This document shows positions 8,329-56,755 of a stretch of 64,000 nt of DNA, in pieces (the stretch's first letter is position 1; each line of letters begins with the position of its first letter). A model generated the notes under the pieces. The model did no database searches and was not told the DNA's origin. It saw only the letters and a list, made by a program, of their open reading frames with translations. Source of the DNA: a virus. The position numbers and the translations under genes were made by a program. The stretch lies in IMG/VR virus record IMGVR_UViG_3300045988_126262. One strand, given 5' to 3'.

Positions 8329-8351
8329 CAAAAAGAGAAAGATACAATATA

Positions 8352-19737: not shown

Positions 19738-21144
19738 ATGGACGAAATAACCGCTATATTAAACAGTGCCCGACCCGTTGATAATATTATCAATGACTTA
19801 AAAAGAAAATCCGTTTGTGTTCCTTCATGGGAATTTCTTATTAAAGCGTATGAACCATCATTCCATGAAATAGCCAAAGATACTATAACACGAAAAGATA
19901 AAATACGCAAAGACGGGACAAAAGAAGAAGCATCACGCATTTACATTGGCCTTGAAAAGCTGCTTACAAAGCGTATGACTGAGTTCATGTTTGCCATTCC
20001 TGTAAAACGTATCTACCACAACACAGAAGGATTTGAAGTCCGCCAACAGATAGCAAAGGCTATAGAGGCAATTTACAAGTATGCCCGAATCGATACAGAA
20101 AATATTAAACGTGCAAATGCGTATTTCGCCTCATGCGAAATTTTCACAATTTGGTACGTAGTAGAAAAGACCAATACATTATATGGTTTTAATAGTAAGT
20201 ATAAGCTAAAATGCAAAACATACTCGCCAATGGAGGGAGTAAAACTATATCCATTGATCGACGAGCTTGACGATATGCTTGCAATGTCCTTTGAATACAC
20301 CAAAAGGGTAAAGGACGAAGTAATTACTTATTTTGAGACATACACATCGGACAAACATTATAAATGGAAACAAAATGGTAAAGGTTGGGAACCTGTCGGA
20401 ACTGTTGAACAAATACGATTAATGAAAATACCCGGTGCATACGCATTTAGACCTGTACCTATATACCACGGATTAACTCGTATTCGCAAAGAATTGGAAT
20501 ATACACTTTCTCGTAACTCCGACGTGATTGCCTATAATTCAGCACCAATTTTGAAAATAGCCGGTGGTATAAAAGGTGGAGAAGATAAAGGAGAAAGCCG
20601 TAGAGTTTACCGTGTGGAATATAATGGAGACGTATCGTATGTATCATGGTCGCAATCTATCGAAGCATTGAAGTATCATGTGGAAACCCTGCTTAAACTC
20701 TATTGGATGCAATCGCAGATGCCGGACGTTTCTTTTGACAACATGAAGTCTTTGGGGAACATAGGTTACGATGCCAGACAAATGCTTTTGACCGACGCAC
20801 ACTTAAAGGTTGGAGACGAAAGCGGCTCATGGATTGAGCTTTTCGAACGTGAGGCAAGTGTCATCAAAGAATTTTTAAAGCACATGAACACATCATGGGA
20901 AAGCGAAATTGATAATATAGAGATTGAACATATCATTACCCCCTTCATACAACAAGATGAAGATGCCACAGCAGATCGCTTATTGAAACTTAATGGCGGA
21001 AAACCAGTCATGTCTCAGCTTGAATCTATCCAACAGGCAGGTTATAGCAATGACGCGCAGGCTACATTGGAACAGATACGGCAAGAGGAGACTATCACTT
21101 CACAAAGCAGGGTCGACAATATATTTGGAGAGTCAGCAATTTAA
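19738..21144 (+). CDS. Portal protein (SPP1 gp6-like)
   Basis: 468 aa, immediately upstream of the MuF-like gene (conserved portal-MuF synteny); N-terminal region resembles SPP1-type portals from memory. Confidence 0.6.
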   Translation: MDEITAILNSARPVDNIINDLKRKSVCVPSWEFLIKAYEPSFHEIAKDTITRKDKIRKDGTKEEASRIYIGLEKLLTKRMTEFMFAIPVKRIYHNTEGFEVRQQIAKAIEAIYKYARIDTENIKRANAYFASCEIFTIWYVVEKTNTLYGFNSKYKLKCKTYSPMEGVKLYPLIDELDDMLAMSFEYTKRVKDEVITYFETYTSDKHYKWKQNGKGWEPVGTVEQIRLMKIPGAYAFRPVPIYHGLTRIRKELEYTLSRNSDVIAYNSAPILKIAGGIKGGEDKGESRRVYRVEYNGDVSYVSWSQSIEALKYHVETLLKLYWMQSQMPDVSFDNMKSLGNIGYDARQMLLTDAHLKVGDESGSWIELFEREASVIKEFLKHMNTSWESEIDNIEIEHIITPFIQQDEDATADRLLKLNGGKPVMSQLESIQQAGYSNDAQATLEQIRQEETITSQSRVDNIFGESAI

Positions 21145-21247: not shown

Positions 21248-23884
21248 ATGGCAAAGCCGAAAACTCCAAATCAGAAACGCAAGTACGGCGAGCTGAATAA
21301 ACGGCTCGCCAAATACGTCATGCTTGTGGAATCCATATACGAGGATTTGAATTTAGAGGCGGCTAAAATAGTCGGAATCACCGATTTTACCATTGATAGT
21401 GATAGGCCGTTTATGTGGTCGGATTATCCCCAAACAAGAAAACGGATAAGAGACTTACAAGAAAGGTTCGTTGAGGACATCGGAGCTGTAATATATAGTG
21501 GCACTTCTGAAGAATGGAAAAACAGCAACGAAGTTCAAGATCTTCTTGCCAACAAAGTATTGCAAACTTATGGCGCAACCATAGGAAAGGAGAAATACGA
21601 AATCCTATACCAGCCCAATAATGATGCATTGAAAGCGTTTCAGCAACGTAAGGATAAAGGATTTACTATATCAGATAAGTTGTGGAATCAATCGACTCTG
21701 TATAAGCAAGAACTTGAAGAAGCCATATCATGTGCCATTCAAAAAGGTACGAGTGCAATTACATTAAGTAAGCAAATATCCAAATATCTGCTCGATTTCC
21801 CACAACTACAAAAAGATTACAAGGAAAGGTTCGGAAAAGCATCACGGGCAATGGATTGTGAGTATCGTTCTATCCGTTTGGCTGCTTCCGAAATCAATAT
21901 GGCATACCGCCAAGCTGAAAACCTTCGCTGGCAGCAGATGGACTTCGTGGTGGGATATGAAATCAAGTTGAGCAACAACCATACTTGCAACGGAAAGCCT
22001 TTCCAAGACATTTGCGATATACTAGCCGGGAAGTACCCGAAAGACTTCCAATGGACCGGTTGGCATCCCCTTTGTTATTCAGATGATAGCGAAGTTCTGA
22101 CGAATAGAGGTTGGAAGTTATTCAAAGACGTTTTAGATGATGATTTGATATTATCGTTAAATCCAAATACACGTAATATAGAATGGGTTGAATTTATCGA
22201 TAGACAATGTTTCTCATATTATGGAGAAATGATACATTTCTACAATCGCTCTCTTGATTGTCTCGTAACCCCAGAACACAATATGGTGTATTTGAATAAG
22301 AATGACGGAAAAATTAAGAATTGCCAAGCGAAAGAATACACGAAAGGTAAAGGCAGATTTTATAGAGGTTGCGAGTATGAATCAGGCGATGTCGAATTTT
22401 ACCAAATTGATGATTTGATAATCCAATTTGATTTGTTCTGCGAATTTATGGGGTATTGGCTTTCTGACGGTAGTACAATGAGCAATTCGGGCGTCGTAAT
22501 ATCCCAGCAAGAGGGAGAAACGGCAAGAGATAAAATAGTTGATTGTATCAATCGTATGGGATTTGAACCACATCTTGAAAAACAAAAGGTCGTATTTTAT
22601 AACACTACCATACGCAACTATTTGAAGATTTTTGGACGGTGTATAAACAAATTTGTCCCGTATGTTATAAAGAATGCTTCAAAGAGGCAGATAAGGATTT
22701 TTCTTGATGCCTTTGTCCTTTGCGACGGTTATAAGCGTCCTTGCAGATCATTCATAGGGAATCACGGTAATGAATTCAAGTCAGATAAAGATGAAATCAT
22801 ATACTTCACCACATCTGAACGCATGGCAGGAGACTTATCCGAACTAATACTGAAATCAGGACATAGGCCTTCTTTTTCTATAAATAAAGCAGGAGTATCA
22901 CACAAAGCGAATGGTCCAATTATAAAGTCAAACTATGATTGTTACTCTATACGTGAATGCTATTCTGTCACGTCTTCGGTATTTAATAAAGAGATACAGC
23001 ATTATGATGGTCTTGTCTATGATTTGACACTGGAACGCAACCATATCATGTATATCCGCAGGAACGGAAAATGCTTTTGGGGTAGCAATTGTCGCTGTTA
23101 CAAGATACCCATTCTAAAAACCGAAGAAGAATTTTGGGAATGGGACGGTCGGAGTGAAGCCACGACAGCAAGCGTGAACGAAGTTAAAGACGTACCGGAC
23201 GCTTTCAAAAAGTGGGTATTAGATAATCAAGAGCGCATCAGCACAGCAAAAAAACGTAATACTTTACCATACTTTTTGCGTGATAATAAATCCGTTTATC
23301 AGAAAATAACAGTTGAAAGTTCCATTTCGGAAATTGTAAAACGAGCATCATCAGTGGGAGATGAAGTACAGTCCATAGCAGAACGGATCGCAATAAAAAA
23401 TGGTGGTTATGTTACGCCTATTAATTTCAAGAGTACAACTTCTATCACAAGAAAAGTCATCACAGAAGGTATAACTCCATACGATATTAAAGATGCTGTA
23501 AGAACAACCATAATCGTTCCGAAGTCCCGAATAGAAGATGTGTTAGAAGAACTGTACAAAACGGAAGGCTTTTTACGCCTTAAAAGGCAAAAACCAGAAT
23601 CATTCATGGGATATAGTGGAAACATCGTAAACATAAGAACCACAAATGGTCTTACTGCGGAAATACAGGTTAATACGGAACGTATGATTTTTGCAAAAGA
23701 AAGGCCGGAAGATGCGAAACGTATTCTTGGAAAAAAACGTTGGGAAGAAATACATAATGAGACAGGAATGGAAGGTGGTCTCGGACATAAATATTATGAG
23801 CAATGGCGCATACTCGATAAATCAAGTAATGAAGCACTAAAAATAGTAGAAAAATCTATTGAATATTATAGTCATTTCCGATAA
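21248..23884 (+). CDS. MuF/SPP1 gp7-like head morphogenesis protein with an inserted intein and a C-terminal RelA/SpoT-like (toxSAS-like) domain
   Basis: The extein junction restores GWHPL|CRCYKIP (the MuF HPxCRC motif). C-terminal motifs FKSTTSITRKV, DAVRTTIIV, GYSGNIVNI and AEIQVNT parallel RSH synthetase motifs RxKxxxSxxxK, DxxGxRVI, GYxSxH and EIQIRT. Confidence 0.7.
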   Translation: MAKPKTPNQKRKYGELNKRLAKYVMLVESIYEDLNLEAAKIVGITDFTIDSDRPFMWSDYPQTRKRIRDLQERFVEDIGAVIYSGTSEEWKNSNEVQDLLANKVLQTYGATIGKEKYEILYQPNNDALKAFQQRKDKGFTISDKLWNQSTLYKQELEEAISCAIQKGTSAITLSKQISKYLLDFPQLQKDYKERFGKASRAMDCEYRSIRLAASEINMAYRQAENLRWQQMDFVVGYEIKLSNNHTCNGKPFQDICDILAGKYPKDFQWTGWHPLCYSDDSEVLTNRGWKLFKDVLDDDLILSLNPNTRNIEWVEFIDRQCFSYYGEMIHFYNRSLDCLVTPEHNMVYLNKNDGKIKNCQAKEYTKGKGRFYRGCEYESGDVEFYQIDDLIIQFDLFCEFMGYWLSDGSTMSNSGVVISQQEGETARDKIVDCINRMGFEPHLEKQKVVFYNTTIRNYLKIFGRCINKFVPYVIKNASKRQIRIFLDAFVLCDGYKRPCRSFIGNHGNEFKSDKDEIIYFTTSERMAGDLSELILKSGHRPSFSINKAGVSHKANGPIIKSNYDCYSIRECYSVTSSVFNKEIQHYDGLVYDLTLERNHIMYIRRNGKCFWGSNCRCYKIPILKTEEEFWEWDGRSEATTASVNEVKDVPDAFKKWVLDNQERISTAKKRNTLPYFLRDNKSVYQKITVESSISEIVKRASSVGDEVQSIAERIAIKNGGYVTPINFKSTTSITRKVITEGITPYDIKDAVRTTIIVPKSRIEDVLEELYKTEGFLRLKRQKPESFMGYSGNIVNIRTTNGLTAEIQVNTERMIFAKERPEDAKRILGKKRWEEIHNETGMEGGLGHKYYEQWRILDKSSNEALKIVEKSIEYYSHFR
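22073..23089 (+). mobile_element. Intein (339 aa) with LAGLIDADG homing-endonuclease domain
   Basis: Starts CYSDDSEVLTNRGW and ends ..KCFWGSN with +1 Cys. LAGLIDADG-like blocks MGYWLSDGS and FLDAFVLCDGY. Inserted in the conserved HPxCRC motif. Confidence 0.75.
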
Positions 23885-23908
23885 AAATAATTATCTTTAC
23901 ATATAAAT

Positions 23909-24139
23909 ATGAACCCAAATATCCTACAAAAAAAATTACAAGCGGGTGAAGAAGTCTATATTTTAGACGATTTTGAAGAATCTGCAATACGTCTTGTTCT
24001 TGAAAATGGAAAGACAAATGCTTTCATTAAGCACAAAGGAAGACGCAATGAAAAGGAAATATCACAGTCAAATGAAACCGTTTGCGAGATAATATTAGGA
24101 GGTATAGAAATACCCAAATCAGAATATGACATGTACTAA
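23909..24139 (+). CDS. Hypothetical protein (76 aa), candidate immunity factor for the MuF C-terminal domain
   Basis: Immediately downstream of the toxin-like domain; overlaps the SAH gene by 14 nt. Confidence 0.5.
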   Translation: MNPNILQKKLQAGEEVYILDDFEESAIRLVLENGKTNAFIKHKGRRNEKEISQSNETVCEIILGGIEIPKSEYDMY

Positions 24140-24563
24140 AAATTCACTATTAGAAAAAGCCCTTCAAATCGCCGTCAAAGCCCATAGCGGACAAACCGAT
24201 AAAGCTGGAGCAGCCTACATCTTCCACCCTATCCGTGTGGCAAACCGATGCAAAACAGATGAGGAGCGCATAGTAGCTTTATTGCATGACACGATAGAAG
24301 ATACCGAAGTTACTGCTGAATATTTACTAATGGAAGGCTTTCCTCATAATATTGTGGATGCTATACTTTCTGTCACTCGTAACGATGATGAGATCTATGA
24401 CGATTTCATAAAACGGTGTAGATTGAATCCTATTGGAAGACAAGTAAAGCTGCACGACTTGGAGGACAATTTGGACGTAACCCGTTTACCTCAAATAATA
24501 GAGGAAGACTTACCGAGATTGAACAAGTATCTTAAAGCGTATAAGTTTTTGCTGTCATTGTAG
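24126..24563 (+). CDS. HD-domain small alarmone hydrolase (SpoT/Mesh1-like SAH)
   Basis: ALQIAVKAHSGQTDKAGAAYIFHPIRVA and VALLHDTIEDT (HD..ED hydrolase signature). Confidence 0.8.
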   Translation: MTCTKNSLLEKALQIAVKAHSGQTDKAGAAYIFHPIRVANRCKTDEERIVALLHDTIEDTEVTAEYLLMEGFPHNIVDAILSVTRNDDEIYDDFIKRCRLNPIGRQVKLHDLEDNLDVTRLPQIIEEDLPRLNKYLKAYKFLLSL

Positions 24564-24573: not shown

Positions 24574-24903
24574 ATGAAGCAAATCAAGCTATCAAAACAG
24601 GAGAAGCAAGTGTTGCGTTTAATCAGCAGCGGGATTGTCTGCCCAAACACTTATCCGCACCATATATTCATTTCGTGCGTAGACTCGCTGGAAAGATTAG
24701 GTCTTGTCAAAGGTCTATGGAACGAGGGGCATGAACTTGAAGATGTCCGCATAACGAAATATGGAAAAATTTATCTTGCCACCAATCCTAACTTACGCAA
24801 TCCCATAGACTGGAAATGGATTATAACTACCATCATCGCAGTAGCAAGTGCCATATTCGGCGCTATGGCCTTGTTTGTGGCTTGCTCGATAAAATACGGA
24901 TAA
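24574..24903 (+). CDS. Membrane-anchored hypothetical protein (109 aa)
   Basis: C-terminal TM WIITTIIAVASAIFGAMALFVAC; N-terminal part possibly winged-helix-like. Confidence 0.55.
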   Translation: MKQIKLSKQEKQVLRLISSGIVCPNTYPHHIFISCVDSLERLGLVKGLWNEGHELEDVRITKYGKIYLATNPNLRNPIDWKWIITTIIAVASAIFGAMALFVACSIKYG

Positions 24904-24982
24904 TTCCTTTGATTTAAAGAATTGATGTTTGTACAACTCTAATTTGGCATTTGTTTACACACGTCTATTTTGAGGCATATAA

Positions 24983-25019
24983 AAAGCGGTGAGATTAATT
25001 TTTCATCGCTTTCTTTTTA
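24983..25019 (+). terminator. Putative intrinsic terminator
   Basis: Stem AAAGCGGTGA / TCATCGCTTT (one G-U pair) with a 10-nt loop, followed by a T-rich run CTTTTTAC. Confidence 0.5.
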
Positions 25020-25153
25020 CGTTTTCTGTTACAACTTTTGTGGTGCACTTCATTATTTGTGAAGATATGGGGATTTTACTTTAAACTGAATTTCGCCTTA
25101 CGATTCACTGCCTTAGGAAATCGTATAATAGCCCTCAAAGGTTAATAATATTG

Positions 25154-25202
25154 AATTATGTATGAAATTCATACATTTTCAAGATTCCATGCTCTAATTT
25201 TG
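25154..25202 (+). promoter_or_regulatory. Late-type promoter P2 (divergent palindrome copy)
   Basis: AATTATGTATGAAATTCATACATTTTC (25154-25180; 22/27 match to consensus); TAATTTTG box at 25195-25202. Confidence 0.45.
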
Positions 25203-25213
25203 TGCCCAATAAT

Positions 25214-25463
25214 TAGCATTACCTCGTAAAATTCAATACTTTTGTAATGCTACAAGTTGATGAACTTAATCATCTCGCAGGGCAAGCGGTTAATTTGCTC
25301 AATAGAAAGTTGGGCTTTTTTTATGCCTATACTTTTATATATTGGCGGCCTCCTATACGTAAGTAAAGATTAGCCTTTCGAGGTGAAGTCCATTAACTTG
25401 TAGCAGCGTATATGGCGGCCGCTTTTTGCTGCCTATCATACAACTTAATGCTACAAGTTTATG
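25214..25463 (+). promoter_or_regulatory. Structured 5' leader with three copies of TGCTACAAGTT / AACTTGTAGCA
   Basis: TGCTACAAGTT at 25248-25258 and 25449-25459; reverse complement at 25395-25405. An additional 9-bp hairpin TAGCATTAC (25214-25222) / GTAATGCTA (25244-25252). Confidence 0.5.
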
Positions 25464-26285
25464 GCAGCCCAAATTCAAGTCCTAAAACAAACAGAATTGC
25501 TTGGACACCAATTCACAGTTTACGGAACAGCAGAAAATCCCATGTTCCTTGCAAGAGAGATTGCAGAATGCATCGATTACGACAAAACAAGCCTTAACAA
25601 ATTGGTTGCATCTGTAGATGATGATGAAAAGGGTCGGAACATTATTCCGACCCCCGGTGGAAACCAACAAGTTTGGTTCCTAACCGAAGGTGGTTTATAC
25701 GAAGTCCTTATGCAAAGCCGCAAGCCAATAGCCAAACAATTCAAGAAAGGGGTCAAACAAATCCTTCACGAAGTACGTACCACAGGCGGCTACATCTCCA
25801 CCAAGCAAGAAGACACACCAGAAGAAATCATGGCACGTGCGCTAACCATTGCACAAGCCACTCTTGCCAAAAGAGAAGAACGATTAAAACAGCTCGAAGC
25901 TGAAAATGCCCAGAAACAAATTATCATCGAGAGAAAAGACGAGGAAATATCCATAAAGGACGATACTATAAAGGTCCTCGCCCCCAAAGGTAAATGTTAC
26001 GATGAAATCATGTCGAGTGAAGGACTTGTGACGACAAACATGATAGCGGCATTCTTAGGTGTATCGGCTATAAAACTGAACAAACTACTCTGTGAATGGG
26101 GAGTTCAATACAGACAATCTTCTGTTTACTTCCTCACGGCCAAATACCGCAGTAAAGGATTTACCAAACATGTCCCCTACCCTTATATGGATAACGGAGT
26201 ACAGAAATCAAGAGAACATATGTATTGGACCGAATCAGGCAGAAAGTTTGTCATTGAATTGTTCAATACCAAACTCTCGGCATAA
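25461..26285 (+). CDS. Second antirepressor-like protein (Bro-N + coiled coil + KilAC)
   Basis: LGHQFTVYGTAENPMFLAREIAECIDY (Bro-N pattern); C-terminus LVTTNMIAAFLGVSAIKLNKLLCEWGVQY (KilAC pattern). Confidence 0.7.
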   Translation: MAAQIQVLKQTELLGHQFTVYGTAENPMFLAREIAECIDYDKTSLNKLVASVDDDEKGRNIIPTPGGNQQVWFLTEGGLYEVLMQSRKPIAKQFKKGVKQILHEVRTTGGYISTKQEDTPEEIMARALTIAQATLAKREERLKQLEAENAQKQIIIERKDEEISIKDDTIKVLAPKGKCYDEIMSSEGLVTTNMIAAFLGVSAIKLNKLLCEWGVQYRQSSVYFLTAKYRSKGFTKHVPYPYMDNGVQKSREHMYWTESGRKFVIELFNTKLSA

Positions 26286-26428
26286 TATCAGCTATAACCA
26301 TAAAGTTATTATAAATCCAAAGGGGCGGTTTATCCGCTCCGGGGTTACCCTACCCTAATAGGGTGCTTTTATATGTTTGTTAAATTATAGACGGGGCAGC
26401 CGCTTGTGAAAGTAAGCTATCCCACCGG

Positions 26429-26458
26429 TAGCGGACGTGTCCGGGAGGATTCCCGCTA
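26429..26458 (+). other. Hairpin with loop containing GTCCGGGAGGAT (second copy)
   Basis: Stem TAGCGG (26429-26434) / CCGCTA (26453-26458); loop 12-mer identical to 5074-5085. Confidence 0.4.
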
Positions 26459-26492
26459 TTCCGAACATCGTTAAACAATAAACTTTTTTTAT

Positions 26493-26792
26493 ATGGAAAC
26501 AACCGAATTAAAACAAGATGAGCAGACAGTAGAAGTAATCGAACATCGTAGCGTCGATACCATGCGTAACGCAGTCATCAGTGGACAGACAAGGGAGTTA
26601 TTAATCATGTTGGCAGGATTGCGGGATATAGAGAACTCTTTTTGCAACTGGAAGAACAAGTACGGAATTGTATCAGATAATGATACAGATCACTTTATAC
26701 AACTAACAACCCAATGCGGAACCTTGATACAGGAAAGTATCATTAAGTCTATAAATGACAATTTAGGCCGATTGGATTTTAAGGCGATATGA
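26493..26792 (+). CDS. Hypothetical protein (99 aa)
   Basis: ATG ORF; no motif. Confidence 0.5.
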   Translation: METTELKQDEQTVEVIEHRSVDTMRNAVISGQTRELLIMLAGLRDIENSFCNWKNKYGIVSDNDTDHFIQLTTQCGTLIQESIIKSINDNLGRLDFKAI

Positions 26793-27008
26793 AACGTAAT
26801 ATTTTAAGCATTAACATAGAGATACCGATGTTTATAATATATCGGATCCCAATTTCCTGAACATCTCCCCTCCGAGCTTTCATGCCGGGTGGAGTAAGAC
26901 GAACGACAAGCCGAGAGAGAAATTTTTCTAAAATAGAATAAAAACAGACACGATTGTTTGCTAATTTGGAAACAAATTATTATCTTTGTAAATATAACAA
27001 GAAACGAT

Positions 27009-27350
27009 ATGGCCGGGCATACGATAACCATAATACTAAGCGATGAGGCGAACAGTTTTGTAAGGCAGCAGCCATTCAAGGCACAGCAGAAGATAGCGTA
27101 TAATATTCGTAGAGTGCAGAGTGGTCTAATAGAAAAGGACGTTTTCAAGAAATTGGAAAACTCTGATATATGGGAGTTACGGACGCTTTTCAACGGAATT
27201 TGTTACCGTCTGTTTGCTTTCTGGGACACCAAGAAAGGGGCTTTGGTAGTGGTTACTCACGGGATAGTGAAAAAGACGCAGAAAACCCCTAAAAAGGAGA
27301 TAGAAAAGGCAGAGAGAATAAGGAAAGAATATTTTAATGATAAAAAGTAA
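27009..27350 (+). CDS. higB: RelE/HigB-superfamily toxin (Gp49/DUF891-like)
   Basis: ..IWELRTLFNGICYRLFAFWD..ALVVVTHGIVKKTQKTPKKEIEKA matches the Gp49-like pattern. Track start 26958 is TTG; first ATG is 27009. A TATCTTTG box lies at about 26981. Confidence 0.75.
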   Translation: MAGHTITIILSDEANSFVRQQPFKAQQKIAYNIRRVQSGLIEKDVFKKLENSDIWELRTLFNGICYRLFAFWDTKKGALVVVTHGIVKKTQKTPKKEIEKAERIRKEYFNDKK

Positions 27351-27355
27351 CAGAT

Positions 27356-27688
27356 ATGGCAAAGATGAATTTCACACCAGCAGACAAATTGATAGATGAT
27401 GTATGGGGAAAGGTGGGCACTCCCGAAAGGGACGCTATGGAAGCTCAACTCAAAGATGATTTGCAGGCTTATTACATTGGAGAGGCTATCAAGGCAGAAA
27501 GGCTCAAACAGAACCTCACACAGGAGGAATTAGGCAAAAAAGTAGGCGTGAAACGCTCTCAAATTTGTAAGTTGGAGAGCGGTAAGTGTATAATAACACT
27601 TCCTACTATGAGCAAAGTTTTTAAGGCTTTGGGAATTACAACGGCCACCCTTGATTTGGGAATAGGCGGAAAGGTTGCTTTGTGGTAA
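27356..27688 (+). CDS. higA: XRE-family HTH antitoxin (HigA-like)
   Basis: LKQNLTQEELGKKVGVKRSQICKLESGK HTH; sits 5 nt downstream of the toxin (toxin-first HigBA order). Confidence 0.75.
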   Translation: MAKMNFTPADKLIDDVWGKVGTPERDAMEAQLKDDLQAYYIGEAIKAERLKQNLTQEELGKKVGVKRSQICKLESGKCIITLPTMSKVFKALGITTATLDLGIGGKVALW

Positions 27689-27712
27689 GAATATAAAGCA
27701 GGATCCATAACG

Positions 27713-27740
27713 AGGAGGACGCAAAACGCCCTCCTTTTTT
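27713..27740 (+). terminator. Intrinsic terminator after the HigBA-like operon
   Basis: AGGAGGACG-CAAAA-CGCCCTCCT (one mismatch) followed by TTTTTT. Confidence 0.7.
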
Positions 27741-27850
27741 GTCGCCTTATACTTTAAATTTAGGTCGTGATTAGGTAATAAATAAACTTAAACGAGTTAC
27801 AAATGAAATCATTGCTTCATTCATAATCTTTAATTCAAATCCAGACAATA

Positions 27851-28612
27851 CTATCCTACAATCGAGAGATACCGGCTTAAAGATTCTATTTCAGCCCGTA
27901 TAACGACCTTTTGGAACTCTGCCGGATTGTTCTCCGTATGAGAGGCTTCCAGTGCCTTGTAATAGCTTATTTTGTCCTCGTTGCTGCCTTTGAGATTTAC
28001 CAGTGTATAACCGTTGCGGAGTAAGTATAGATTCATCAGAAGCCGAGATGTACGCCCGTTCCCGTCTATGAACGGGTGTATTCGTACCAACTCATCATGA
28101 AGATAAGCCGCAATGAGCACCGGGTGAATGCCCTGCTCCTCCATTCCGGAAAACCTTGTCATAAAAGCCTCCATTTGTGGTTGTATCAAATACGGCTGTG
28201 GAGGGACATGTGTACTTCCCGAAATCATAACAGGCACGCCCCGATAACGTCCGGCATTCTCTCTGTCTATGCCATGTAGCACAATAGCGTGTATTTCCTT
28301 GATTGTGCGCTCCGATATTTCCATACCTCCCTTTGCAAAGTCCTTTATGTAGTCTATCGCTTCAACGTGGTTAATCGCTTCAAGGTGTTCCCGCATTGAC
28401 TTTCCGGCGATAGTAACCCCCTCGTTGACTACTAACTCCGTTTCTTGCAGTGTGAGCGTATTTCCCTCGATCCGGTTGCTTTCATAGGTGTATTCAATGG
28501 CAAACGCATTCTCTATCTTTTGCAGGGCATCCGGTGGTAATGGGCGCAGCCCCAACAAACGAGCTTTCAACGTGTCGCATTGAAGTAATAGCTTTGTTAT
28601 TTCCTCGTTCAT
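27851..28612 (-). CDS. fic: Fic-domain protein (putative AMPylase), class with N-terminal inhibitory motif
   Basis: Canonical HPFIDGNGRTSR Fic motif; N-terminal SNRIEG fits the (S/T)xxxE(G/N) inhibitory helix. Confidence 0.9.
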   Translation of the reverse strand: MNEEITKLLLQCDTLKARLLGLRPLPPDALQKIENAFAIEYTYESNRIEGNTLTLQETELVVNEGVTIAGKSMREHLEAINHVEAIDYIKDFAKGGMEISERTIKEIHAIVLHGIDRENAGRYRGVPVMISGSTHVPPQPYLIQPQMEAFMTRFSGMEEQGIHPVLIAAYLHDELVRIHPFIDGNGRTSRLLMNLYLLRNGYTLVNLKGSNEDKISYYKALEASHTENNPAEFQKVVIRAEIESLSRYLSIVG

Positions 28613-28615
28613 GGC

Positions 28616-28879
28616 TTAATCTTTTGACTCAATTACCTTTAACTTCGCTCCACATTTAGGACACGTCAATACAGTAGTATCGATATTGGGGCGTACTTCT
28701 TCTGGTGATACAAACAATTCCCATATATTAACTCCTAAATTAGAAGCAATTGAAGTAAGAACTTTAATTGAAGGATTCCCTGATATATGTTGGTTCAATG
28801 CACTTTGGCTAATTCCCATTCTTTCGGCTAACTCTTTTGTAGTTATACCTTTTTGCTCAATAATATCTCTTATTCTCAT
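28616..28879 (-). CDS. XRE HTH protein with C-terminal zinc ribbon (regulator/antitoxin candidate for Fic)
   Basis: KGITTKELAERMGISQSALNQHISG HTH; CPKCGAKL half-ribbon at the C-terminus; 3-nt gap to fic. Confidence 0.7.
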   Translation of the reverse strand: MRIRDIIEQKGITTKELAERMGISQSALNQHISGNPSIKVLTSIASNLGVNIWELFVSPEEVRPNIDTTVLTCPKCGAKLKVIESKD

Positions 28880-28934
28880 ATCCTAAAAGTTATTTCTGTT
28901 ACAAAAGTCGTTTTTTTATTAGTATATGCAAGCT

Positions 28935-29009
28935 ATATCTTGTATAAATAAAGTTAAATACAAGATAAATCTTGCTCAAACCATTGTAAATACAAGATAT
29001 AACTTGTAT
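28935..29009. promoter_or_regulatory. Operator-like inverted repeats upstream of the HTH-fic operon
   Basis: ATATCTTGTAT (28935-28945) / ATACAAGATA (28958-28967), and ATACAAG-N6-CTTGTAT (28990-29009). Confidence 0.5.
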
Positions 29010-29037
29010 CTTTATATCATAAAACTAAAACAAAGAT

Positions 29038-29325
29038 ATGAAAACGAAAATCAACAAATCGCAACTCTTCAAAATGGCATGGTCAATGTATAAACGCTCT
29101 ATCTCGGTTCTCGGCCGTGAGTTCTGCCAGTCGTTCAGTGCTTGTTTGAGGAACGCATGGTTTAAGATGAAAGCGGAAGCCCGCAAGGCAGAAAAAGAGG
29201 CTCGCCGGTTAATGAAAAAGTCGGGACCCGCACAAAAGCCCGAATCGATTGTATTCGACTCAGCAATGGAAAGAGGTATAATAGAGTATTACAGAAACCA
29301 AAGCGGGCGTTATTGCGGAGATTGA
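29038..29325 (+). CDS. Hypothetical basic protein (95 aa)
   Basis: ATG ORF divergent from the fic operon. Confidence 0.5.
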   Translation: MKTKINKSQLFKMAWSMYKRSISVLGREFCQSFSACLRNAWFKMKAEARKAEKEARRLMKKSGPAQKPESIVFDSAMERGIIEYYRNQSGRYCGD

Positions 29326-29470
29326 TACACCAAATACACGTGCTCTTCCAAAACAACAAGAGCGGTGGCCCGGCTATATCACTGTGGAAACAAAAGCCGG
29401 GTCACTTTAATAAAAACCAATAGATTAAACCTATTGTCCGTGATACTCCATTTCATTCATATTTCATTTC

Positions 29471-29606
29471 AAGTTACCAAAAGTTAAACTCCTGATTATG
29501 AGTAAAATAAGGTTGTAAATATTTGGTTAACTTACTGATAATGAGTATCTTTACAATACTAAAACAAACAACATTACTAACAATTAAAAGACAAAGAGCA
29601 ATGAAA
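29471..29606 (+). repeat. Promoter/leader repeat, copy B
   Basis: Identical to copy C over about 136 bp, through ..AAAGAGCAATGAAA. Confidence 0.9.
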
Positions 29607-29939
29607 GCAACTCATATTTTTACAGAGAAATTTGATACAAGAAGAAAACTTGCCAACAGAGCACTGAAAGCAATGAATGACATCTGTGACTACGATAATG
29701 GTACAATTCGCAACCCTTATGAGCTTGCAAGTTCTGTAATGAAAGACGGTAGAACACTTATCCAAACTATCTATGAAGATGGCGAGGTACAATACAATGA
29801 TGGGTGGTATATCGTAGAAGTTGACGAATATTGTATGTATGTTGACTTAACAGGTATTGCTACTAAAGAAATGGGGATTGAGAAGTATGAGTATATTGAC
29901 GAAATCAGCGAATTTGAAGAGATTGAAGTATTAGTATAA
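29601..29939 (+). CDS. Hypothetical protein (112 aa), first gene of cassette B
   Basis: Track ORF 29523 begins on TTG inside the repeat; first ATG is 29601 with the AGAGCAATG context. Confidence 0.55.
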   Translation: MKATHIFTEKFDTRRKLANRALKAMNDICDYDNGTIRNPYELASSVMKDGRTLIQTIYEDGEVQYNDGWYIVEVDEYCMYVDLTGIATKEMGIEKYEYIDEISEFEEIEVLV

Positions 29940-29982
29940 TTTTAACTAGCAGAGCGAAAGCCTTGCACAATATATAAGAGCA

Positions 29983-30627
29983 ATGAACACATATTACAAG
30001 TTTGCGCCAAACGTATTTTTGGCAAAGTGCGAAGAAAAGCATGAAAGAGGTGAGGAAATTCTAGTTACAACCAAGTATGGAAAAGAGAATGAAAGTATCG
30101 TTTTTAATCTGATATTTGAGCGTGACGGATTCTATTATTACTCCATCGTAAGGGCTGACGGATTCAACGTACAAGAATGGGCAAAACGTAGAGCCGAACG
30201 TAGACGTGAATGGTCTGTATCAGCAAATAAAAAAAGTCATGAATATTTCGAAAAGTCAAATAAGGACAGAGATTTTCTTTCACTTGGAGAACCTATTAAA
30301 GTAGGACATCATAGCGAAAGACGACACAGAAAAGCAATAGCGGATGCTTGGAGAAACATGGGTAAAAGCGTTGAATTTAGCGACAAAGCAACAGAACATG
30401 AAAGAGAAGCCGAATACTGGGACAAGCGTGCTACAACCATCAACCTATCTATGCCGGAAAGTATTTACTTTTATGCGCACAAGCTGGAAGAAGCCAAAGA
30501 ATATCATGAAGGTGTAAAGTCAGGCAAATATCCACGTGAACACTCCTACACTCTTACTTATGCCAAAAAAGCAGTAAATGAAGCTCAAAAGAATTACGAT
30601 CTTGCAGTAAAATTATGGGGAGAATAA
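29983..30627 (+). CDS. DUF3560-like protein
   Basis: GEPIKVGHHSERRHRKAIADAW resembles the DUF3560 core seen in plasmid/ICE leading regions (from memory); AGAGCAATG start. Confidence 0.55.
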   Translation: MNTYYKFAPNVFLAKCEEKHERGEEILVTTKYGKENESIVFNLIFERDGFYYYSIVRADGFNVQEWAKRRAERRREWSVSANKKSHEYFEKSNKDRDFLSLGEPIKVGHHSERRHRKAIADAWRNMGKSVEFSDKATEHEREAEYWDKRATTINLSMPESIYFYAHKLEEAKEYHEGVKSGKYPREHSYTLTYAKKAVNEAQKNYDLAVKLWGE

Positions 30628-30630
30628 AAA

Positions 30631-30879
30631 ATGGAAAAGTTGATTAGAAACGATAACGCTTGGAGTGTGATGATCATTACAGGGGATAAACTTGGCTATA
30701 AAAGCGAAGCTTTAGAACTTGCTAAAAAGGTGTTATTGGAGCATTATAGCTTATATCCAAGTCAAATACCTTTTTTATCAGGGGAGGCGACAAGAATACA
30801 CAATTTAATTGCTTATGATAAAAAAGTTTATAAAGCAAACGAAATGGCACAACGCATAATAAAAGAGTTAGGACTATGA
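30631..30879 (+). CDS. Hypothetical protein (82 aa)
   Basis: ATG ORF 3 nt after the upstream stop. Confidence 0.5.
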   Translation: MEKLIRNDNAWSVMIITGDKLGYKSEALELAKKVLLEHYSLYPSQIPFLSGEATRIHNLIAYDKKVYKANEMAQRIIKELGL

Positions 30880-31190
30880 AAACGAAAGTTACAAAAGACG
30901 GTTTTGTCTGGCTTATAGTAGATAAAGACACAGCCACAGCCATATACAAAACTGGAACGCAAGAATTGTATTCTCTATACGACGACGATGCAGAAGGACT
31001 TATCGAAAGTGATGAAGATTTTGAAAGAGCATTACGGAGCAGTTGCCCATTTGGAGTTGAAGTTGGCTACATTAAAGACTTGCTCCCAACCTGTACGAAA
31101 TGTGGTAATTCGCTTTTCCTCTCTCCTGCTTCTGGATATATGTGGCGGTGTAATAAATGTGATGAAGATTATACAAGTAATGAAATATGA
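30876..31190 (+). CDS. Hypothetical zinc-ribbon protein (104 aa)
   Basis: CTKCG..N15..CNKCD motif; ATGA overlap. Confidence 0.55.
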   Translation: MKTKVTKDGFVWLIVDKDTATAIYKTGTQELYSLYDDDAEGLIESDEDFERALRSSCPFGVEVGYIKDLLPTCTKCGNSLFLSPASGYMWRCNKCDEDYTSNEI

Positions 31191-31369
31191 AATATAAATA
31201 CAAATTCAGAATAATCGAAACCTACTCGAAGATAGTGGAGGTAGAAGCAGAAAACATGGATTCCGCTCATGAGAAAGTAGAAGAAATGATAAACACAGAA
31301 GAAATCGACCTTACTGACGATGATTTTGAAGACATAGAAATTTACCCTTATGGAAACCAAGACAAGTAA
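31187..31369 (+). CDS. Hypothetical acidic protein (60 aa)
   Basis: ATGA overlap; strongly acidic. Confidence 0.45.
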   Translation: MKYKYKFRIIETYSKIVEVEAENMDSAHEKVEEMINTEEIDLTDDDFEDIEIYPYGNQDK

Positions 31370-31404
31370 AGCTATATCCTATATCCCTACTCCACTCCGG
31401 CTAT

Positions 31405-31611
31405 TTGAAAGAAGCATTAGCTATATTCTCTACTTTTCGAGTTGGTTTCTCCAAAGAAGAACGCAGGACATTGAAGATAGCCCACGAATGTCTTTCAGGC
31501 AATGCTGGGTTCTATCGTCAACTTGGGATTGATACCAGTGCGGAGATTGAGAAATGCAGGTCGATTTTACTTTCCAAGTATCAGAGAATCAATAAGTTAA
31601 ATAAAGTTTAA
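31405..31611 (+). CDS. Hypothetical protein (68 aa; TTG start, uncertain)
   Basis: Preferred over the overlapping 31350-31532 ORF on amino-acid composition only. Confidence 0.3.
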   Translation: MKEALAIFSTFRVGFSKEERRTLKIAHECLSGNAGFYRQLGIDTSAEIEKCRSILLSKYQRINKLNKV

Positions 31612-31701
31612 TCAGAGTGAATAATAGGCGTAACTCATTGGTATTCAATATATTATTTATATCTTTATATATCAAAAATAACAACTTAAACAACAAGAGC
31701 A

Positions 31702-32013
31702 ATGAAAAAATATCTGTTTTATATTACGAACGATGGAAATATTGGTGTAAGAGAACATCATTTTGATTGGAAAGAAAATGATAAGATTATGACAAATGGT
31801 TCGTCGAGCAGGATTCTGAAAGTTTTTGATGGTAATAGCCACAACATAATGATAGCGAATAAGATAATGAAAACCCTTAATAAGGTTGGTAAAATAAGAA
31901 CGAGACTTGGATATAGAGACGGAATGCCTGCAATTATTCAATCTGGATACAAATGGAGAGATGCTAATGCTAAACTTGAATACGTAAATGAGAATTTACG
32001 TGCTATGATTTAA
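31702..32013 (+). CDS. Hypothetical protein (103 aa)
   Basis: AGAGCAATG start context. Confidence 0.5.
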   Translation: MKKYLFYITNDGNIGVREHHFDWKENDKIMTNGSSSRILKVFDGNSHNIMIANKIMKTLNKVGKIRTRLGYRDGMPAIIQSGYKWRDANAKLEYVNENLRAMI

Positions 32014-32045
32014 GTAATAGATATGTAAACATTCCTAAAAGAGCA

Positions 32046-32321
32046 ATGAGTGAGATAGAACAAATGACATATGAACTTAACCTAATATTACACTCTGATA
32101 CCTATCAGTTTGAAATCGATACAGAAGATTATGTCTTCGGATTCAAGAAAACCATAAGAAAACGAACTAAAAGTTTAGCAAAAGCTATTCAATTACAAGT
32201 TAAGCTAATTAATGATTGCGGGCGATTTTTGTCTGAAACAGTGAGAATCGTATCTGTACGGTTTTACAGGAACGGTGAGTTAAGAAAAGAAGTTCATGTC
32301 AACGAAACAACGCATAAATAA
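32046..32321 (+). CDS. Hypothetical protein (91 aa)
   Basis: AGAGCAATG start context. Confidence 0.5.
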   Translation: MSEIEQMTYELNLILHSDTYQFEIDTEDYVFGFKKTIRKRTKSLAKAIQLQVKLINDCGRFLSETVRIVSVRFYRNGELRKEVHVNETTHK

Positions 32322-32328
32322 TAGAGCA

Positions 32329-32757
32329 ATGGAAATGAAAAGAGCAATGACAAGCCAAGAAAGTTTTGCTATTCTCCGAGAAATTGAAAATCGAAAGTAT
32401 CCCGGAGGCATAAGTCTTACAGATTGGACTAGGCAAATTCAAGAAGAGAAAATTAAAGCCATTAAGGGCCTTGTCCCAGAGGAAGGCTTAGGCTGCACAA
32501 TCTGCTATTATTCAGACAGACGTGCAGCCACGGTTACAAGAATAATCTCTCCATGCAAGATAGAGGTGACATTTAACGAAGTTAGGTGCATCGACTACTA
32601 TGCCGGGGATTATGAGATTTTGCCGAAGCTCAAAGGAGAGCCAAAGGTGTTTACCAAAAGAAGAAATGGATATTGGGTAGCAGAAGGACAGCCAGTCAAG
32701 GGCGGTGTCTTGCTGATGCTGCATTATCAAAGTCATTATATTGACCCAAGTTTTTAA
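32329..32757 (+). CDS. Hypothetical protein (142 aa)
   Basis: The internal ATG at 32329 carries the AGAGCAATG context and avoids overlap with the upstream gene (track start 32296). Confidence 0.55.
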   Translation: MEMKRAMTSQESFAILREIENRKYPGGISLTDWTRQIQEEKIKAIKGLVPEEGLGCTICYYSDRRAATVTRIISPCKIEVTFNEVRCIDYYAGDYEILPKLKGEPKVFTKRRNGYWVAEGQPVKGGVLLMLHYQSHYIDPSF

Positions 32758-32769
32758 AGAATAAGAGCA

Positions 32770-32919
32770 ATGAGGACGGCGACATTGAAAGAGCCATACA
32801 AAGGCTATCGAAACATTATCCTAATAGAATATTGGGGTAACGTATGCAAATGGGAAGTAGAGATTTGCGGAAGTGGTAAACATATCTTCGTTTATGAAGA
32901 TGAATTTGTGGAGGACTAA
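32770..32919 (+). CDS. Small hypothetical protein (49 aa)
   Basis: Own translation MRTATLKEPYKGYRNIILIEYWGNVCKWEVEICGSGKHIFVYEDEFVED; AGAGCAATG start context. Confidence 0.4.
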   Translation: MRTATLKEPYKGYRNIILIEYWGNVCKWEVEICGSGKHIFVYEDEFVED

Positions 32920-32922
32920 ATT

Positions 32923-33174
32923 ATGACATTCGAGGATTTGAAAGAAAGTGACAAGGATAAAATAAAGAACGTTAACCGGCGAAATCGTTATGGATTGTCA
33001 AGCAAACAGCTTGAGCGTCTTATCAAAGAACATAAGAAAGCAATGCAATTAGGCGATGAATATACTTGTTTACTTATAGAATATCGCCTTTGTGACATCA
33101 ATTTTCATACGGAGGTGGATTTGTTGCACGCCGGAGAATATGAAAAAGTCATAGAAATAATAAAAACGTGGTAG
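32923..33174 (+). CDS. Hypothetical protein (83 aa)
   Basis: ATG ORF 3 nt after the upstream stop. Confidence 0.5.
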   Translation: MTFEDLKESDKDKIKNVNRRNRYGLSSKQLERLIKEHKKAMQLGDEYTCLLIEYRLCDINFHTEVDLLHAGEYEKVIEIIKTW

Positions 33175-33193
33175 TTTAGACAATTTTAGCACT

Positions 33194-33230
33194 AAAAGTG
33201 CATGAATTTCATATACTTTTTATATATTTA
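33194..33230 (+). promoter_or_regulatory. Late-type promoter P3: palindrome + -7-like box
   Basis: AAAAGTGCATGAATTTCATATACTTTT (33194-33220), then TATATTTA (33223-33230). Confidence 0.55.
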
Positions 33231-33250
33231 CACCGTAAAAAGAACAAAAA

Positions 33251-33655
33251 ATGAAGATTTTTACATCGTATTTCGGTAATAGCCGAAAACTGAAAGAGGC
33301 GGGAGTTAATATGATTTGCGTAGCAATCGGAAAACCCAGATTTATAGCTGGTATTCCACAAATGCTGAATGTTTGCCCGACTCGTTATATGGTAAGTGGA
33401 CCTTGTTCCCACGATGAATACCTAAAACTTTACGACAGAATATTGGCAAGCCAAGATGCGAACCAAGTCGTGAAACAAATTGAAATGTTAAGCGGAGGAA
33501 AAGACGTTGCTCTTTGTTGCTACGAAAAACCGGGTGATTTCTGCCATCGCCATATTTTGGCAAAATGGATCACAGAAAATACTGGTATTGAAATCACAGA
33601 ATTTGGAGTTGTTGAGAAGAAAGAGCCCAATTATGAACAAGCGAGTTTGTTTTGA
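33251..33655 (+). CDS. DUF488-family protein
   Basis: MKIFTSYFGN.. and ..LCCYEKPGDFCHRHILAKWI match the DUF488 pattern. Confidence 0.65.
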   Translation: MKIFTSYFGNSRKLKEAGVNMICVAIGKPRFIAGIPQMLNVCPTRYMVSGPCSHDEYLKLYDRILASQDANQVVKQIEMLSGGKDVALCCYEKPGDFCHRHILAKWITENTGIEITEFGVVEKKEPNYEQASLF

Positions 33656-33735
33656 AAATAATGCCAACCATCAATAGCGTTTGATGGGATGCTGTCAGAT
33701 TTGCCAAGCAAGCGGTGGTTTGACAGCATTGGTTT

Positions 33736-33808
33736 GGTTGAATGGCGAAGTGATTAACGCAACGGTCTGCAAAACCGTTATTCGTGGGTTTGAATCCCAC
33801 TTCAACCT
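33736..33808 (+). tRNA. tRNA-Cys (GCA)
   Basis: Hand-folded cloverleaf: acceptor GGTTGAA/TTCAACC, anticodon arm ACGGT-CTGCAAA-ACCGT, T-arm GTGGG-TTTGAAT-CCCAC, discriminator U73. Atypical features are U56 and a D-loop without GG. Confidence 0.7.
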
Positions 33809-33864
33809 CAGAGGACCGAAGTACAAGGAAGGGCAGTGGAAATTCTGTGCAGGCTGCCCATATT

Positions 33865-33934
33865 GCGGAAATAGCTCATCGGCAGAGCGTTGGCATTCCA
33901 ACCAAAGAGTGGGGTTCGATTCCCTGTTTCCGCT
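33865..33934 (+). tRNA. tRNA-Gly(UCC)-like gene with an irregular anticodon arm
   Basis: Perfect acceptor GCGGAAA/TTTCCGC, D-arm GCTC-ATCGGCA-GAGC, T-loop TTCGATT. The anticodon region TTGG-CATTCCAA-CCAA gives a 4-bp stem with an 8-nt loop. Confidence 0.5.
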
Positions 33935-34157
33935 CAACCCTTATAGTAGCGATAAGCAAAAGCAAGAACATTAAAGCTTGTGCAGTTTACGGGGTGATAG
34001 AAATTGCTATCTGACACGACTGAAAGAAGCCGAAGAATTGCATAAGTGTTCTTGTAAGTAGCTTGAAGAATGATTGAATTTGTGTTTAAGCCTGTCGGGA
34101 ATACGCTCGACAGGCATTTAACGCAAAATGTATATGAAGTTATATACAACTCAGTAA

Positions 34158-35459: not shown

Positions 35460-36199
35460 AAGACGTGCATATCATTCAGGAGAAATTAGATGAAGTAAAC
35501 AATTTGATTGCTCCATATCAACTGGCATACGTCAGTCCAACCAAAGATTGTATCCCATTGGAAAAAAACGCCCATTATATGGAAAAGCAGACGCTTGACC
35601 GATTGACTACTAATGTAGCAGAAGATGGCTTTCTTTCTCAATTACCGTTTGCAATGAAACGGAATGACGGTAAATATCTTATTTTATCTGGGAATCATCG
35701 GTTAAAAGCGAGTATCAAAGCGAAACTTGAATATATCCTTATCCTCTATATTGACGAGGTGGATAAAGACAAACAGATTGCTTATACATTATCACATAAT
35801 GCTTTGGTAGGTAAGGATGACATGCAAATGCTCAAAGAAATATATTCGGAAATGCGTAGCATAGAATCACGAGAATATTCAGGGTTAAACGGTATAAAGT
35901 TCATGGATACAGATAAAATACCGACTGTATCTATTAACGATGGGGATATTGAACTTACTGAAATGAAATTCTTGTTTACTGAAAGTAGGAGCAATAATGT
36001 CAAAAATGTGCTTGCAGAACTAGAAAAACAGAAATTATCAGAAGATTGTTCTATCGTCGTTGGCTCTTATGAAGCTTTTATTAAAGTGGCTACCGAAGTG
36101 AAGAATAAATATAATATTAAGAGCAATACAGTCGCATTTGCACGAATGGTAGATATTTGTGAAACATATCTTAAGGATTTGGAAGAAAAGGAGGAATAG
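35435..36199 (+). CDS. ParB-like nuclease domain protein
   Basis: YLILSGNHRLKASIKA fits the ParB/Srx GxHR motif; lies directly upstream of terminase small subunit. Confidence 0.65.
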   Translation: MDKKVQEVKDVHIIQEKLDEVNNLIAPYQLAYVSPTKDCIPLEKNAHYMEKQTLDRLTTNVAEDGFLSQLPFAMKRNDGKYLILSGNHRLKASIKAKLEYILILYIDEVDKDKQIAYTLSHNALVGKDDMQMLKEIYSEMRSIESREYSGLNGIKFMDTDKIPTVSINDGDIELTEMKFLFTESRSNNVKNVLAELEKQKLSEDCSIVVGSYEAFIKVATEVKNKYNIKSNTVAFARMVDICETYLKDLEEKEE

Positions 36200-36200
36200 T

Positions 36201-44446: not shown

Positions 44447-44464
44447 CAGTATAATTTATTTTGC

Positions 44465-45982: not shown

Positions 45983-45994
45983 ATCTTTATTTTT

Positions 45995-55461: not shown

Positions 55462-55465
55462 GCGT

Positions 55466-56737: not shown

Positions 56738-56755
56738 CCATAAATACAAAACATT

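Follow-up and report, generated by a model that had tools for sequence, protein, structure and literature searches.

A 64,000-nucleotide (nt) stretch of viral DNA, IMG/VR virus record IMGVR_UViG_3300045988_126262 (hereafter the window), encodes a MuF head protein that ends in a toxin domain, and this gene and the two that follow it are very probably the Barnesiella-prophage orthologue of the Apk2–BcTis1–Aph1 polymorphic-toxin module. The window is a siphovirus-type prophage, and proteins 99-100% identical to its MuF protein are named Barnesiella intestinihominis. The module has been characterised since 2023, and the window holds the Barnesiella prophage copy of it. The new points are minor, and consist of a full, mini or empty intein polymorphism in the MuF toxin and of Aph1 genes kept beside non-cognate ADP-ribosyltransferase (ART) toxins. 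A preliminary description had reported a MuF protein, a 76-amino acid (aa) open reading frame (ORF) and an HD-domain hydrolase in this order, and the coordinates of all three are borne out by the ORF list. The features of the module are as follows.

21248-23884, plus strand: ORF of the MuF precursor in the ORF list, 878 aa
21248-22072, plus strand: N-extein, the MuF (SPP1 gp7-like) head-morphogenesis domain, aa 1-275, ending ...TGWHPL; PHROG matches span aa 17-286
22073-23089, plus strand: class-1 intein (339 aa, aa 276-614) that interrupts the HP-x-CRC motif of MuF
~22370-22978, plus strand: predicted LAGLIDADG homing-endonuclease domain of the intein, roughly aa 375-577
23090-23317, plus strand: start of the C-extein (CRCYKIPILK...) and linker, aa 615-690, placed by alignment with intein-less alleles
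23318-23884, plus strand: Apk2tox, a predicted Tas1-like adenosine 3'-pyrophosphokinase ((p)ppApp synthetase toxin domain), aa 691-878
23909-24139, plus strand: 76-aa ORF, starting 24 nt past the MuF stop codon; predicted Tis1-like (BcTis1/IapK-type) non-enzymatic immunity protein
24126-24563, plus strand: ORF of the HD protein, 145 aa, with a 14-nt overlap with the 76-aa ORF; predicted Aph1-type (p)ppApp-specific small alarmone hydrolase (SAH), an enzymatic immunity protein
23288-24147, plus strand: exchangeable toxin–immunity cassette, made up of the toxin domain and the Tis1-like gene together with 22 nt (7 codons) from the start of the hydrolase gene

When the last 188 aa of the MuF protein were compared with the PDB by sequence, Tas1 (6OX6) was the sole match (E 2.1e-27, query residues 7-186 against chain residues 253-432), and 64 of 177 residues of the toxin domain are identical to Tas1. 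An AlphaFold2 (AF2) model of the domain, with a predicted local distance difference test (pLDDT) value of 85.9, was aligned by Foldseek to 6OX6_A with E 6e-14, template-modelling (TM) scores of 0.87/0.84 and a root-mean-square deviation of 2.3 Å, and to structures of Rel, small alarmone synthetases (SAS) and CapRel with TM scores of ~0.4-0.56. The structure search (TM 0.87 to Tas1) places the C-terminal domain of the MuF protein in the RelA/SpoT homologue (RSH) synthetase fold, as had been proposed from its motifs. All five of those motifs were found in the order first given, namely FKSTTSITRKV (aa 727-737), DAVRTTIIV (aa 749-757), GYSGNIVNI (aa 788-796), AEIQVNT (aa 804-810) and GHKYYEQWR (aa 846-854). 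The substitutions at usually conserved positions that had been pointed out are also present, but they do not mark degeneration, since GYSG, EIQVN and GHKYYExWR are also found in Tas1; the full set common to the window domain and Tas1 is KS..., IKD..R.TIIV, GYSG, EIQVN and GHKYYE.WR. Differences between the signatures of Apk and RSH enzymes have been described (Paulet et al. 2025, PMC12226406), and the substitutions in the window correspond to these. Across 13 homologues that are 67-100% identical to the window domain, 97 columns are invariant, the synthetase motifs among them.

The closest comparison is with L084, a metagenome scaffold that was found by a search with the 7SMG sequence and is taken as Bacteroides caccae-type because it carries the exact Aph1. 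It encodes a 538-aa MuF-Apk2, a 75-aa ORF, Aph1 and a 31-aa ORF, and its Apk2tox is 73% identical to the toxin domain of the window, with identical motifs. In the B. caccae prophage, MuF-Apk2 (BACCAC_01148), BcTis1 (BACCAC_01147) and Aph1 (BACCAC_01146) were described by Ahmad et al. 2023 (PNAS, PMC10083569). The Apk2 toxin domain arrested growth of E. coli, lowered ATP and made pApp, ppApp and pppApp from AMP, ADP and ATP, and BcTis1 and Aph1 each gave partial protection and together gave full protection (PMC10083569). By analogy with these orthologues, the window domain would synthesize (p)ppApp from ATP and be toxic, and its substrate is expected to be ATP, ADP or AMP and not tRNA. The preliminary description had treated the substrate and the role of the 76-aa protein as open questions; the module is real, but the questions are less open than was thought, since the chemistry of the orthologues and the roles of both immunity proteins are already published.

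Two other chemistries have to be weighed against (p)ppApp synthesis. The first is that of an ordinary SAS that makes (p)ppGpp and triggers the stringent response of the host. A weak Pfam RelA_SpoT match (E 0.046, below cut-off) and the presence of Rel and SAS structures among the Foldseek matches agree with it, but syn3 has other residues in place of the guanine-recognising SxH, like the syn3 of other Apk enzymes. Moreover, Apk2 orthologues make (p)ppApp only and motif swaps gave no pppGpp (PMC12226406), and Aph1 is without detectable ppGpp hydrolysis (PMC10083569). We reject this explanation as extremely unlikely. The second, raised at the outset as a tRNA-pyrophosphorylating effector, is a kinase acting on the CCA end of tRNA like CapRel, FaRel2 and PhRel2, which would halt translation rather than deplete ATP. 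Such enzymes share the RSH/toxSYNTH fold, and CapRel (7ZTB) is among the Foldseek matches (E ~5e-4), but the TM score is 0.47 for CapRel against 0.87 for Tas1. The product range of the Apk2 orthologues again speaks for (p)ppApp, and the adjacent hydrolase retains the residues that give Aph1 its (p)ppApp specificity. In addition, tRNA-targeting toxSAS are countered by pZFD-type antitoxins, whereas Tis1-like inhibitors are paired with toxins that make (p)ppApp (PMC11782079). A tRNA substrate is therefore disfavoured, and we reject it as highly unlikely.

The HD protein, in which the HSGQ..HP..LLHDTIEDT sequence was found as originally reported, matches PDB entry 7SMG, a '(p)ppApp hydrolase', with E 6e-76. 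Both this match and that of the toxin domain to Tas1 are far beyond chance. Native Aph1 of B. caccae (P0141) is identical to the HD protein at 118 of 143 residues (82.5%), and both HD dipeptides as well as Aph1 residues D24, R96, D116, R119 and K133 are conserved. The HD protein also matches phrog_990 (E 2e-47). Conserved active-site residues were concluded to set the specificity of Aph1 for (p)ppApp, a D24R/R119A double mutant gained ppGpp hydrolysis, and B. caccae Aph1 and 12 homologues hydrolysed pApp, ppApp and pppApp with no detectable hydrolysis of ppGpp (PMC10083569). By analogy, the HD protein of the window would be expected to hydrolyse (p)ppApp but not ppGpp.

The 76-aa protein is identical at 49 of 76 residues (64%) to the 75-aa ORF located between Apk2 and Aph1 in L084. 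Pfam family PF24154 (Tis1_ImmP) is matched by all 22 members of the 76-aa protein family (best E 1.4e-7), and it is on this profile and on the 64% identity to the BcTis1-type ORF that we base its assignment to the Tis1 family. The AF2 model of the protein has a pLDDT of 87.1. Occlusion of the acceptor site by Tis1 is known for the Tas1–Tis1 pair and has been inferred for BcTis1 (PMC10083569, PMC11782079), and the 76-aa protein may similarly bind the toxin at its acceptor-nucleotide site. NCBIfam holds no specific model for the toxin or for the Tis1-like protein.

The arrangement of the module was examined in the 80 IMG/VR loci (L086-L165) that encode a relative of the window toxin domain. All 80 have the MuF–toxin–Tis1-like arrangement, with a relative of the 76-aa protein in each, and the Aph gene is present in 79, the lone exception being cut by the contig end. 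The MuF protein matches PHROG head-morphogenesis/MuF families (phrog_7625 with E 4.9e-89, and also phrog_1657 and phrog_115), as well as phrog_16625, the family of the MuF-ART toxin Bxa (E 1.9e-64). Relative to L084, its MuF part is 73% identical to that of the B. caccae-type Apk2 and its linker is 71% identical. The proposal that a MuF-carried toxin of RSH fold is accompanied by a small binder-type immunity protein and by an SAH-type hydrolase fits published experiments on orthologues that are 64-83% identical (PMC10083569).

The MuF protein is interrupted by an intein, as had been suggested, and the intein is real and precisely bounded (aa 276-614, nt 22073-23089). It has the features of a splicing intein, with C276, block B TPEH (aa 341), block F VYDLTLERNH (aa 590), N614 and a +1 cysteine, C615. 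Two LAGLIDADG-type motifs, GYWLSDGS (aa 402) and FVLCDGY (aa 489), lie in the predicted endonuclease domain (Pfam LAGLIDADG_3 E 0.029, below cut-off). The N-terminal part of the intein matches the AceL NrdHF intein 6ZGQ with E 2.2e-5, and TIGR01443 (intein C-terminal region) matches weakly (E 0.077, 13.3 bits, below the 15.6-bit cut-off). Judged from its sequence, the 878-aa precursor probably splices, with a predicted product of 539 aa in which ...WHPL is joined to CRCYK... and a predicted splice-junction peptide ...WTGWHPLCRCYK. Near-identical intein-free alleles (L087, L088 and L094) read WHPL directly followed by CRCYK, which is the predicted splice product. When the two exteins were joined (1620 nt) and aligned with the intein-free L088, the alignment was gapless at 98.5% nt identity. 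The empty site reads TGGCATCCCCTT followed directly by TGCCGGTGTTAC, and two synonymous differences are found at the junction (TGTCGCTGT in the window versus TGCCGGTGT in the empty allele).

The intein is variable among the relatives of the window. Seventy of the 80 IMG/VR loci have none, seven have a full intein, and three have a mini-intein of 148 aa from which the endonuclease region (aa 375-577) is deleted. If only the 22 loci with a toxin domain 98-100% identical to that of the window are considered, 18 are intein-free, three have the mini and one the full form; the intein-free relatives include phages with ~99%-identical exteins. Example loci of this polymorphism are L088:4760-4790 and L092:4329-4772. 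No intein is found in lineages with an aspartate at +1 (HPNDLC, HPNDMC and HPLDRC), nor in the B. caccae-type and Parabacteroides alleles, and the MuF-plus-intein N-terminus seen in the window is found on ART toxins as well. Given the full, mini and empty pattern and the presence beside ART toxins, the intein is most probably a sporadic selfish homing element in a conserved motif of a structural protein and not a regulator of the toxin. The earlier suggestion that the toxin is gated by intein splicing is unsupported, as the intein lies in the MuF domain and not in the toxin, is absent from 70 of the 80 loci and is also present beside ART toxins. A related idea is that the intein, which is located between two MuF cysteines, acts as a conditional splicing switch (e.g. 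redox or zinc) rather than as a parasite. Such a switch would delay maturation of MuF–Apk2, timing packaging competence or limiting activity in the lysogen. The same intein-free majority, co-occurrence with ART and full/mini/empty pattern speak against it, and we consider it improbable.

A literature search on inteins in MuF proteins returned nothing relevant, and a broader search returned only inteins in minor capsid proteins of actinophages. The family concerned, IPR006528, is one that we take to be the SPP1 gp7/MuF-type head-morphogenesis family. Like the intein of the window, the actinobacteriophage inteins (IPR006528; bioRxiv 10.1101/2025.01.02.630785) are located in a minor capsid protein and are sporadic across the extein phylogeny. 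They differ in that non-canonical homing endonucleases were reported for them, whereas the window intein has a predicted canonical two-motif LAGLIDADG domain and is found in a Bacteroidales phage, in a host protein that bears a toxin. The papers on Apk2 (PMC10083569) and Bxa (PMC11699363) mention no intein.

Taken together, the module could function as follows. The MuF gene would be translated as the 878-aa precursor, from which the class-1 intein would excise itself, joining the exteins into a 539-aa MuF–Apk2 with the junction seen in intein-free alleles. The C-terminal domain would then transfer pyrophosphate from ATP to the 3'-OH of AMP, ADP or ATP, giving pApp, ppApp and pppApp, and would thereby drain the ATP pool. 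In the producing cell, the toxin would be neutralised by the two co-transcribed immunity proteins, the Tis1-like 76-aa protein blocking the acceptor-nucleotide site and the Aph1-type hydrolase returning (p)ppApp to AMP, ADP or ATP. By analogy with SPP1 gp7, the MuF domain might put a few copies into the capsid at the portal, and the toxin might enter the next host with the DNA and deplete ATP there, since the new host would be without immunity. Homology, gene arrangement, conserved residues and the intein boundaries are established for the window itself, and the literature on orthologues provides the enzymology, the toxicity in E. coli and the additive action of both immunity proteins. We infer splicing, packaging, ejection and the biological purpose of the module, with delivery in the virion argued by analogy.

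Several observations weigh against parts of this reading. Enzyme activity and toxicity are known from the orthologues alone and not from the window protein. In the syn3 motif the window has GYSGNI where Tas1 has GYSGVN; GYSGNI is also found in the Apk2 of L084, which is taken as the published active enzyme. On its own, the 76-aa protein matches PF24154 with E 4.8e-4 and 20.6 bits, below the 27-bit cut-off. Foldseek comparison of its model with the PDB gave no match with E <= 0.001 and left Tis1 outside the top 50, and single-sequence and profile searches of the PDB with the protein found nothing. A resemblance of BcTis1 to the Tis1 structure is claimed in PMC10083569 and was not reproduced here for the 76-aa protein. 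Packaging or ejection of any MuF toxin has not been demonstrated in the literature, and the role of MuF toxins is called unknown in PMC10083569. Finally, the intein ends in GSN, such that its penultimate residue is serine and not the usual histidine. The penultimate position varies among functional inteins, and serine is not disqualifying.

The penultimate serine would also fit a toxin domain or whole precursor that is an inactive relic, with an intein that no longer splices or an active site that has decayed, and full-length Apk2 of B. caccae is less toxic than the isolated domain (PMC10083569). However, over 50 protein clusters contain the intact 878-aa ORF with 99-100% identity, the 97 invariant columns of the toxin domain persist across the 13 homologues, and both immunity genes are kept in essentially all loci. 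The intein also occupies the most conserved motif of the head protein, and failure to splice would probably cripple the phage. We reject the relic explanation as very unlikely.

More weight is due to the possibility that the enzymology is as proposed but that no injection takes place, although we still think it doubtful. The toxin would then act in or from the producing cell, as an addiction or abortive infection system, as an interbacterial toxin released by lysis, or as a factor acting on the animal host in the manner of Bxa. In agreement with this, neither presence in virions nor ejection has been shown for any MuF toxin; Bxa, a MuF-ART of the same phage family, targets epithelial cells and promotes colonisation (PMC11699363); and the position of the window immunity genes in the late head operon would suit protection of the producing cell. 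On the other hand, the toxin is always fused to MuF and adjoins the portal gene, and a free toxin would not need a MuF carrier. In the literature as cited in PMC10083569, SPP1 gp7 is a minor capsid protein that associates with the portal and binds the DNA ahead of ejection. Delivery with the virion DNA is the reading that we favour, by analogy, for the window toxin.

Comparison with the sister phage L166 revealed that the toxin domain and the Tis1-like gene are exchanged as a unit. The window and L166 have 99% nt identity up to position 23287 (aa 680) and 98.3% identity from position 24148 (codon 8 of the HD gene). The upstream breakpoint falls near aa 680, and identity to ART variants at the protein level likewise stops at aa 680-682. 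Between the breakpoints, L166 (L166:7041-8432) encodes an ART toxin domain and an ADP-ribosylglycohydrolase, and the Aph1-like gene forms a constant flank of the exchanged cassette. A much more distant Parabacteroides locus, L001 (8640-10420), pairs an intein-less MuF-ART with an ADP-ribosylglycohydrolase and keeps the Aph1-like gene intact, at 80% identity to that of the window. The Aph1-like gene beside an ART toxin in two divergent lineages could be an orphan immunity gene against the Apk2 of rival phages or could be a remnant of recombination. If the former, a 'universal' hydrolase kept beside a non-cognate ART may also protect against the Apk2 toxins of rival phages. These near-isogenic gut-phage variants, with a full, mini or no intein, with an Apk2 or ART cassette in one slot, and always with Aph1, could help to clarify the part that MuF toxins play in the phage life cycle and whether the capsid carries them.

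The module in the window can be compared with several known systems. It shares with the B. caccae-type module the same three genes, their order and overlaps, the adjoining SPP1-type portal gene and a Bacteroidales siphovirus-type prophage. It differs in that the B. caccae-type MuF–Apk2 is intein-free and reads HPNDLC where the window has HPL/CRC (the slash marks the intein position), in that the ORF downstream is of 31 aa as opposed to 109 aa, and in the host genus, which is Barnesiella for the window. The Apk2–IapK–Aph1 systems of Streptococcus pneumoniae, Mannheimia haemolytica and Pasteurella multocida prophages (Bartoli et al. 2023; PMC12226406) have the MuF carrier, synthetase, binder and hydrolase in common with the window, but their hosts are distant and their sequences more divergent, and they were compared by description. 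In these three species the hydrolases are interchangeable and the binders mostly partner-specific (PMC12226406).

The toxin of the Pseudomonas aeruginosa type VI secretion system (T6SS) pair Tas1 (Apk1)–Tis1 (6OX6) has the same fold and motifs as the window domain, and its immunity protein belongs to the same Tis1 Pfam family. Tas1, however, is PAAR-carried and T6SS-delivered, has no hydrolase immunity gene, and is fully countered by Tis1 alone. The toxin–antitoxin (TA) operon FaRel–ATfaRel (an SAH)–AT2faRel (with a Tis1-like domain) of Cellulomonas marina is tricistronic and, like the window module, sets both a hydrolase and a Tis1-like binder against a (p)ppApp toxin (PMC11782079). FaRel is a free-standing TA toxin without a delivery domain, AT2faRel also has a pZFD, and the window domain is much closer to Tas1. 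Tis1-type inhibitors act by occluding the acceptor site and typically accompany (p)ppApp makers; the toxSAS that target tRNA are instead blocked by pZFD domains (PMC11782079). In contrast to the toxSAS TA systems (FaRel, FaRel2, CapRel and PhRel), the window toxin is fused to a phage head protein of 500 aa and is accompanied by a Tis1-like inhibitor rather than a pZFD, and the locus is not a TA module. Lastly, Bxa–BAH–Bsi, the MuF-ART system of a Bacteroides stercoris phage (PMC11699363), belongs to the same MuF family (phrog_16625) and likewise combines enzymatic with structural immunity, but its ADP-ribosylation chemistry and its cognate immunity proteins differ from those of the window.

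The wider surroundings of the module in the window include the following genes.

19738-21144: SPP1-type portal gene, immediately upstream of MuF (PF05133, E 5e-27)
24574-24903, plus strand: 109-aa ORF, beginning 10 nt past the stop codon of the HD gene
36159-38217: TerS and TerL
40894-42204: major head protein
47316-51599: tape measure

The 109-aa ORF has a C-terminal transmembrane helix with weak similarity to 'smalltalk'/DUF6486 peptides (E ~0.005-0.008, below cut-offs). This ORF is confined to the lineage of the window, and the 31-aa ORF of the B. caccae-type locus is found at the same place. Another 145-aa ORF (38895-39332) was considered as a second Aph and rejected, as its match is to a 'DNA repair protein' PHROG. 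Among GenBank phage records, megablast found no match to the 5.2-kb module, a scan of genome contigs with the HD protein returned no B. caccae or Barnesiella record, and PADLOC gave no hits.

The gene order is unusual in that the portal and MuF genes precede TerS/TerL by ~12 kb and the terminase is not followed by a portal gene. In related contigs (L083) the portal–MuF pair likewise precedes the terminase, with variable genes between them. In the window, the toxin module and the terminase are separated by an accessory island (24900-36150). This contains a Bro-N/KilAC antirepressor-like gene (25461) that is the second in the window after one at 18914, and genes for a Gp49-like toxin (26958), a Fic protein (on the minus strand, 27851-28612), DUF3560, DUF488, an amidoligase-like protein and a ParB-like nuclease, and relatives have SocA/Panacea-domain genes in place of the island genes of the window. 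ARAGORN called four tRNA-like genes at 8244-8329, 33736-33809, 33865-33935 and 44376-44447, with the types Arg-TCG, Cys-GCA, one abnormal call with a two-base anticodon, and Gly-TCC, the last of which overlaps the start of an ORF. Between the head and tail modules lie two genes on the minus strand (45287-47125), one of them encoding a type I restriction HSDR_N-like domain (PF04313, E 1e-13); in the B. caccae-type phage L084 an HSDR_N gene is likewise found on the minus strand, further downstream. In the distal tail region (54000-58000 and 62000-64000) the G+C content rises to 0.48-0.52 from the 0.35-0.41 of most of the prophage, and this rise suggests a mosaic origin of the tail-fibre or host-range genes.

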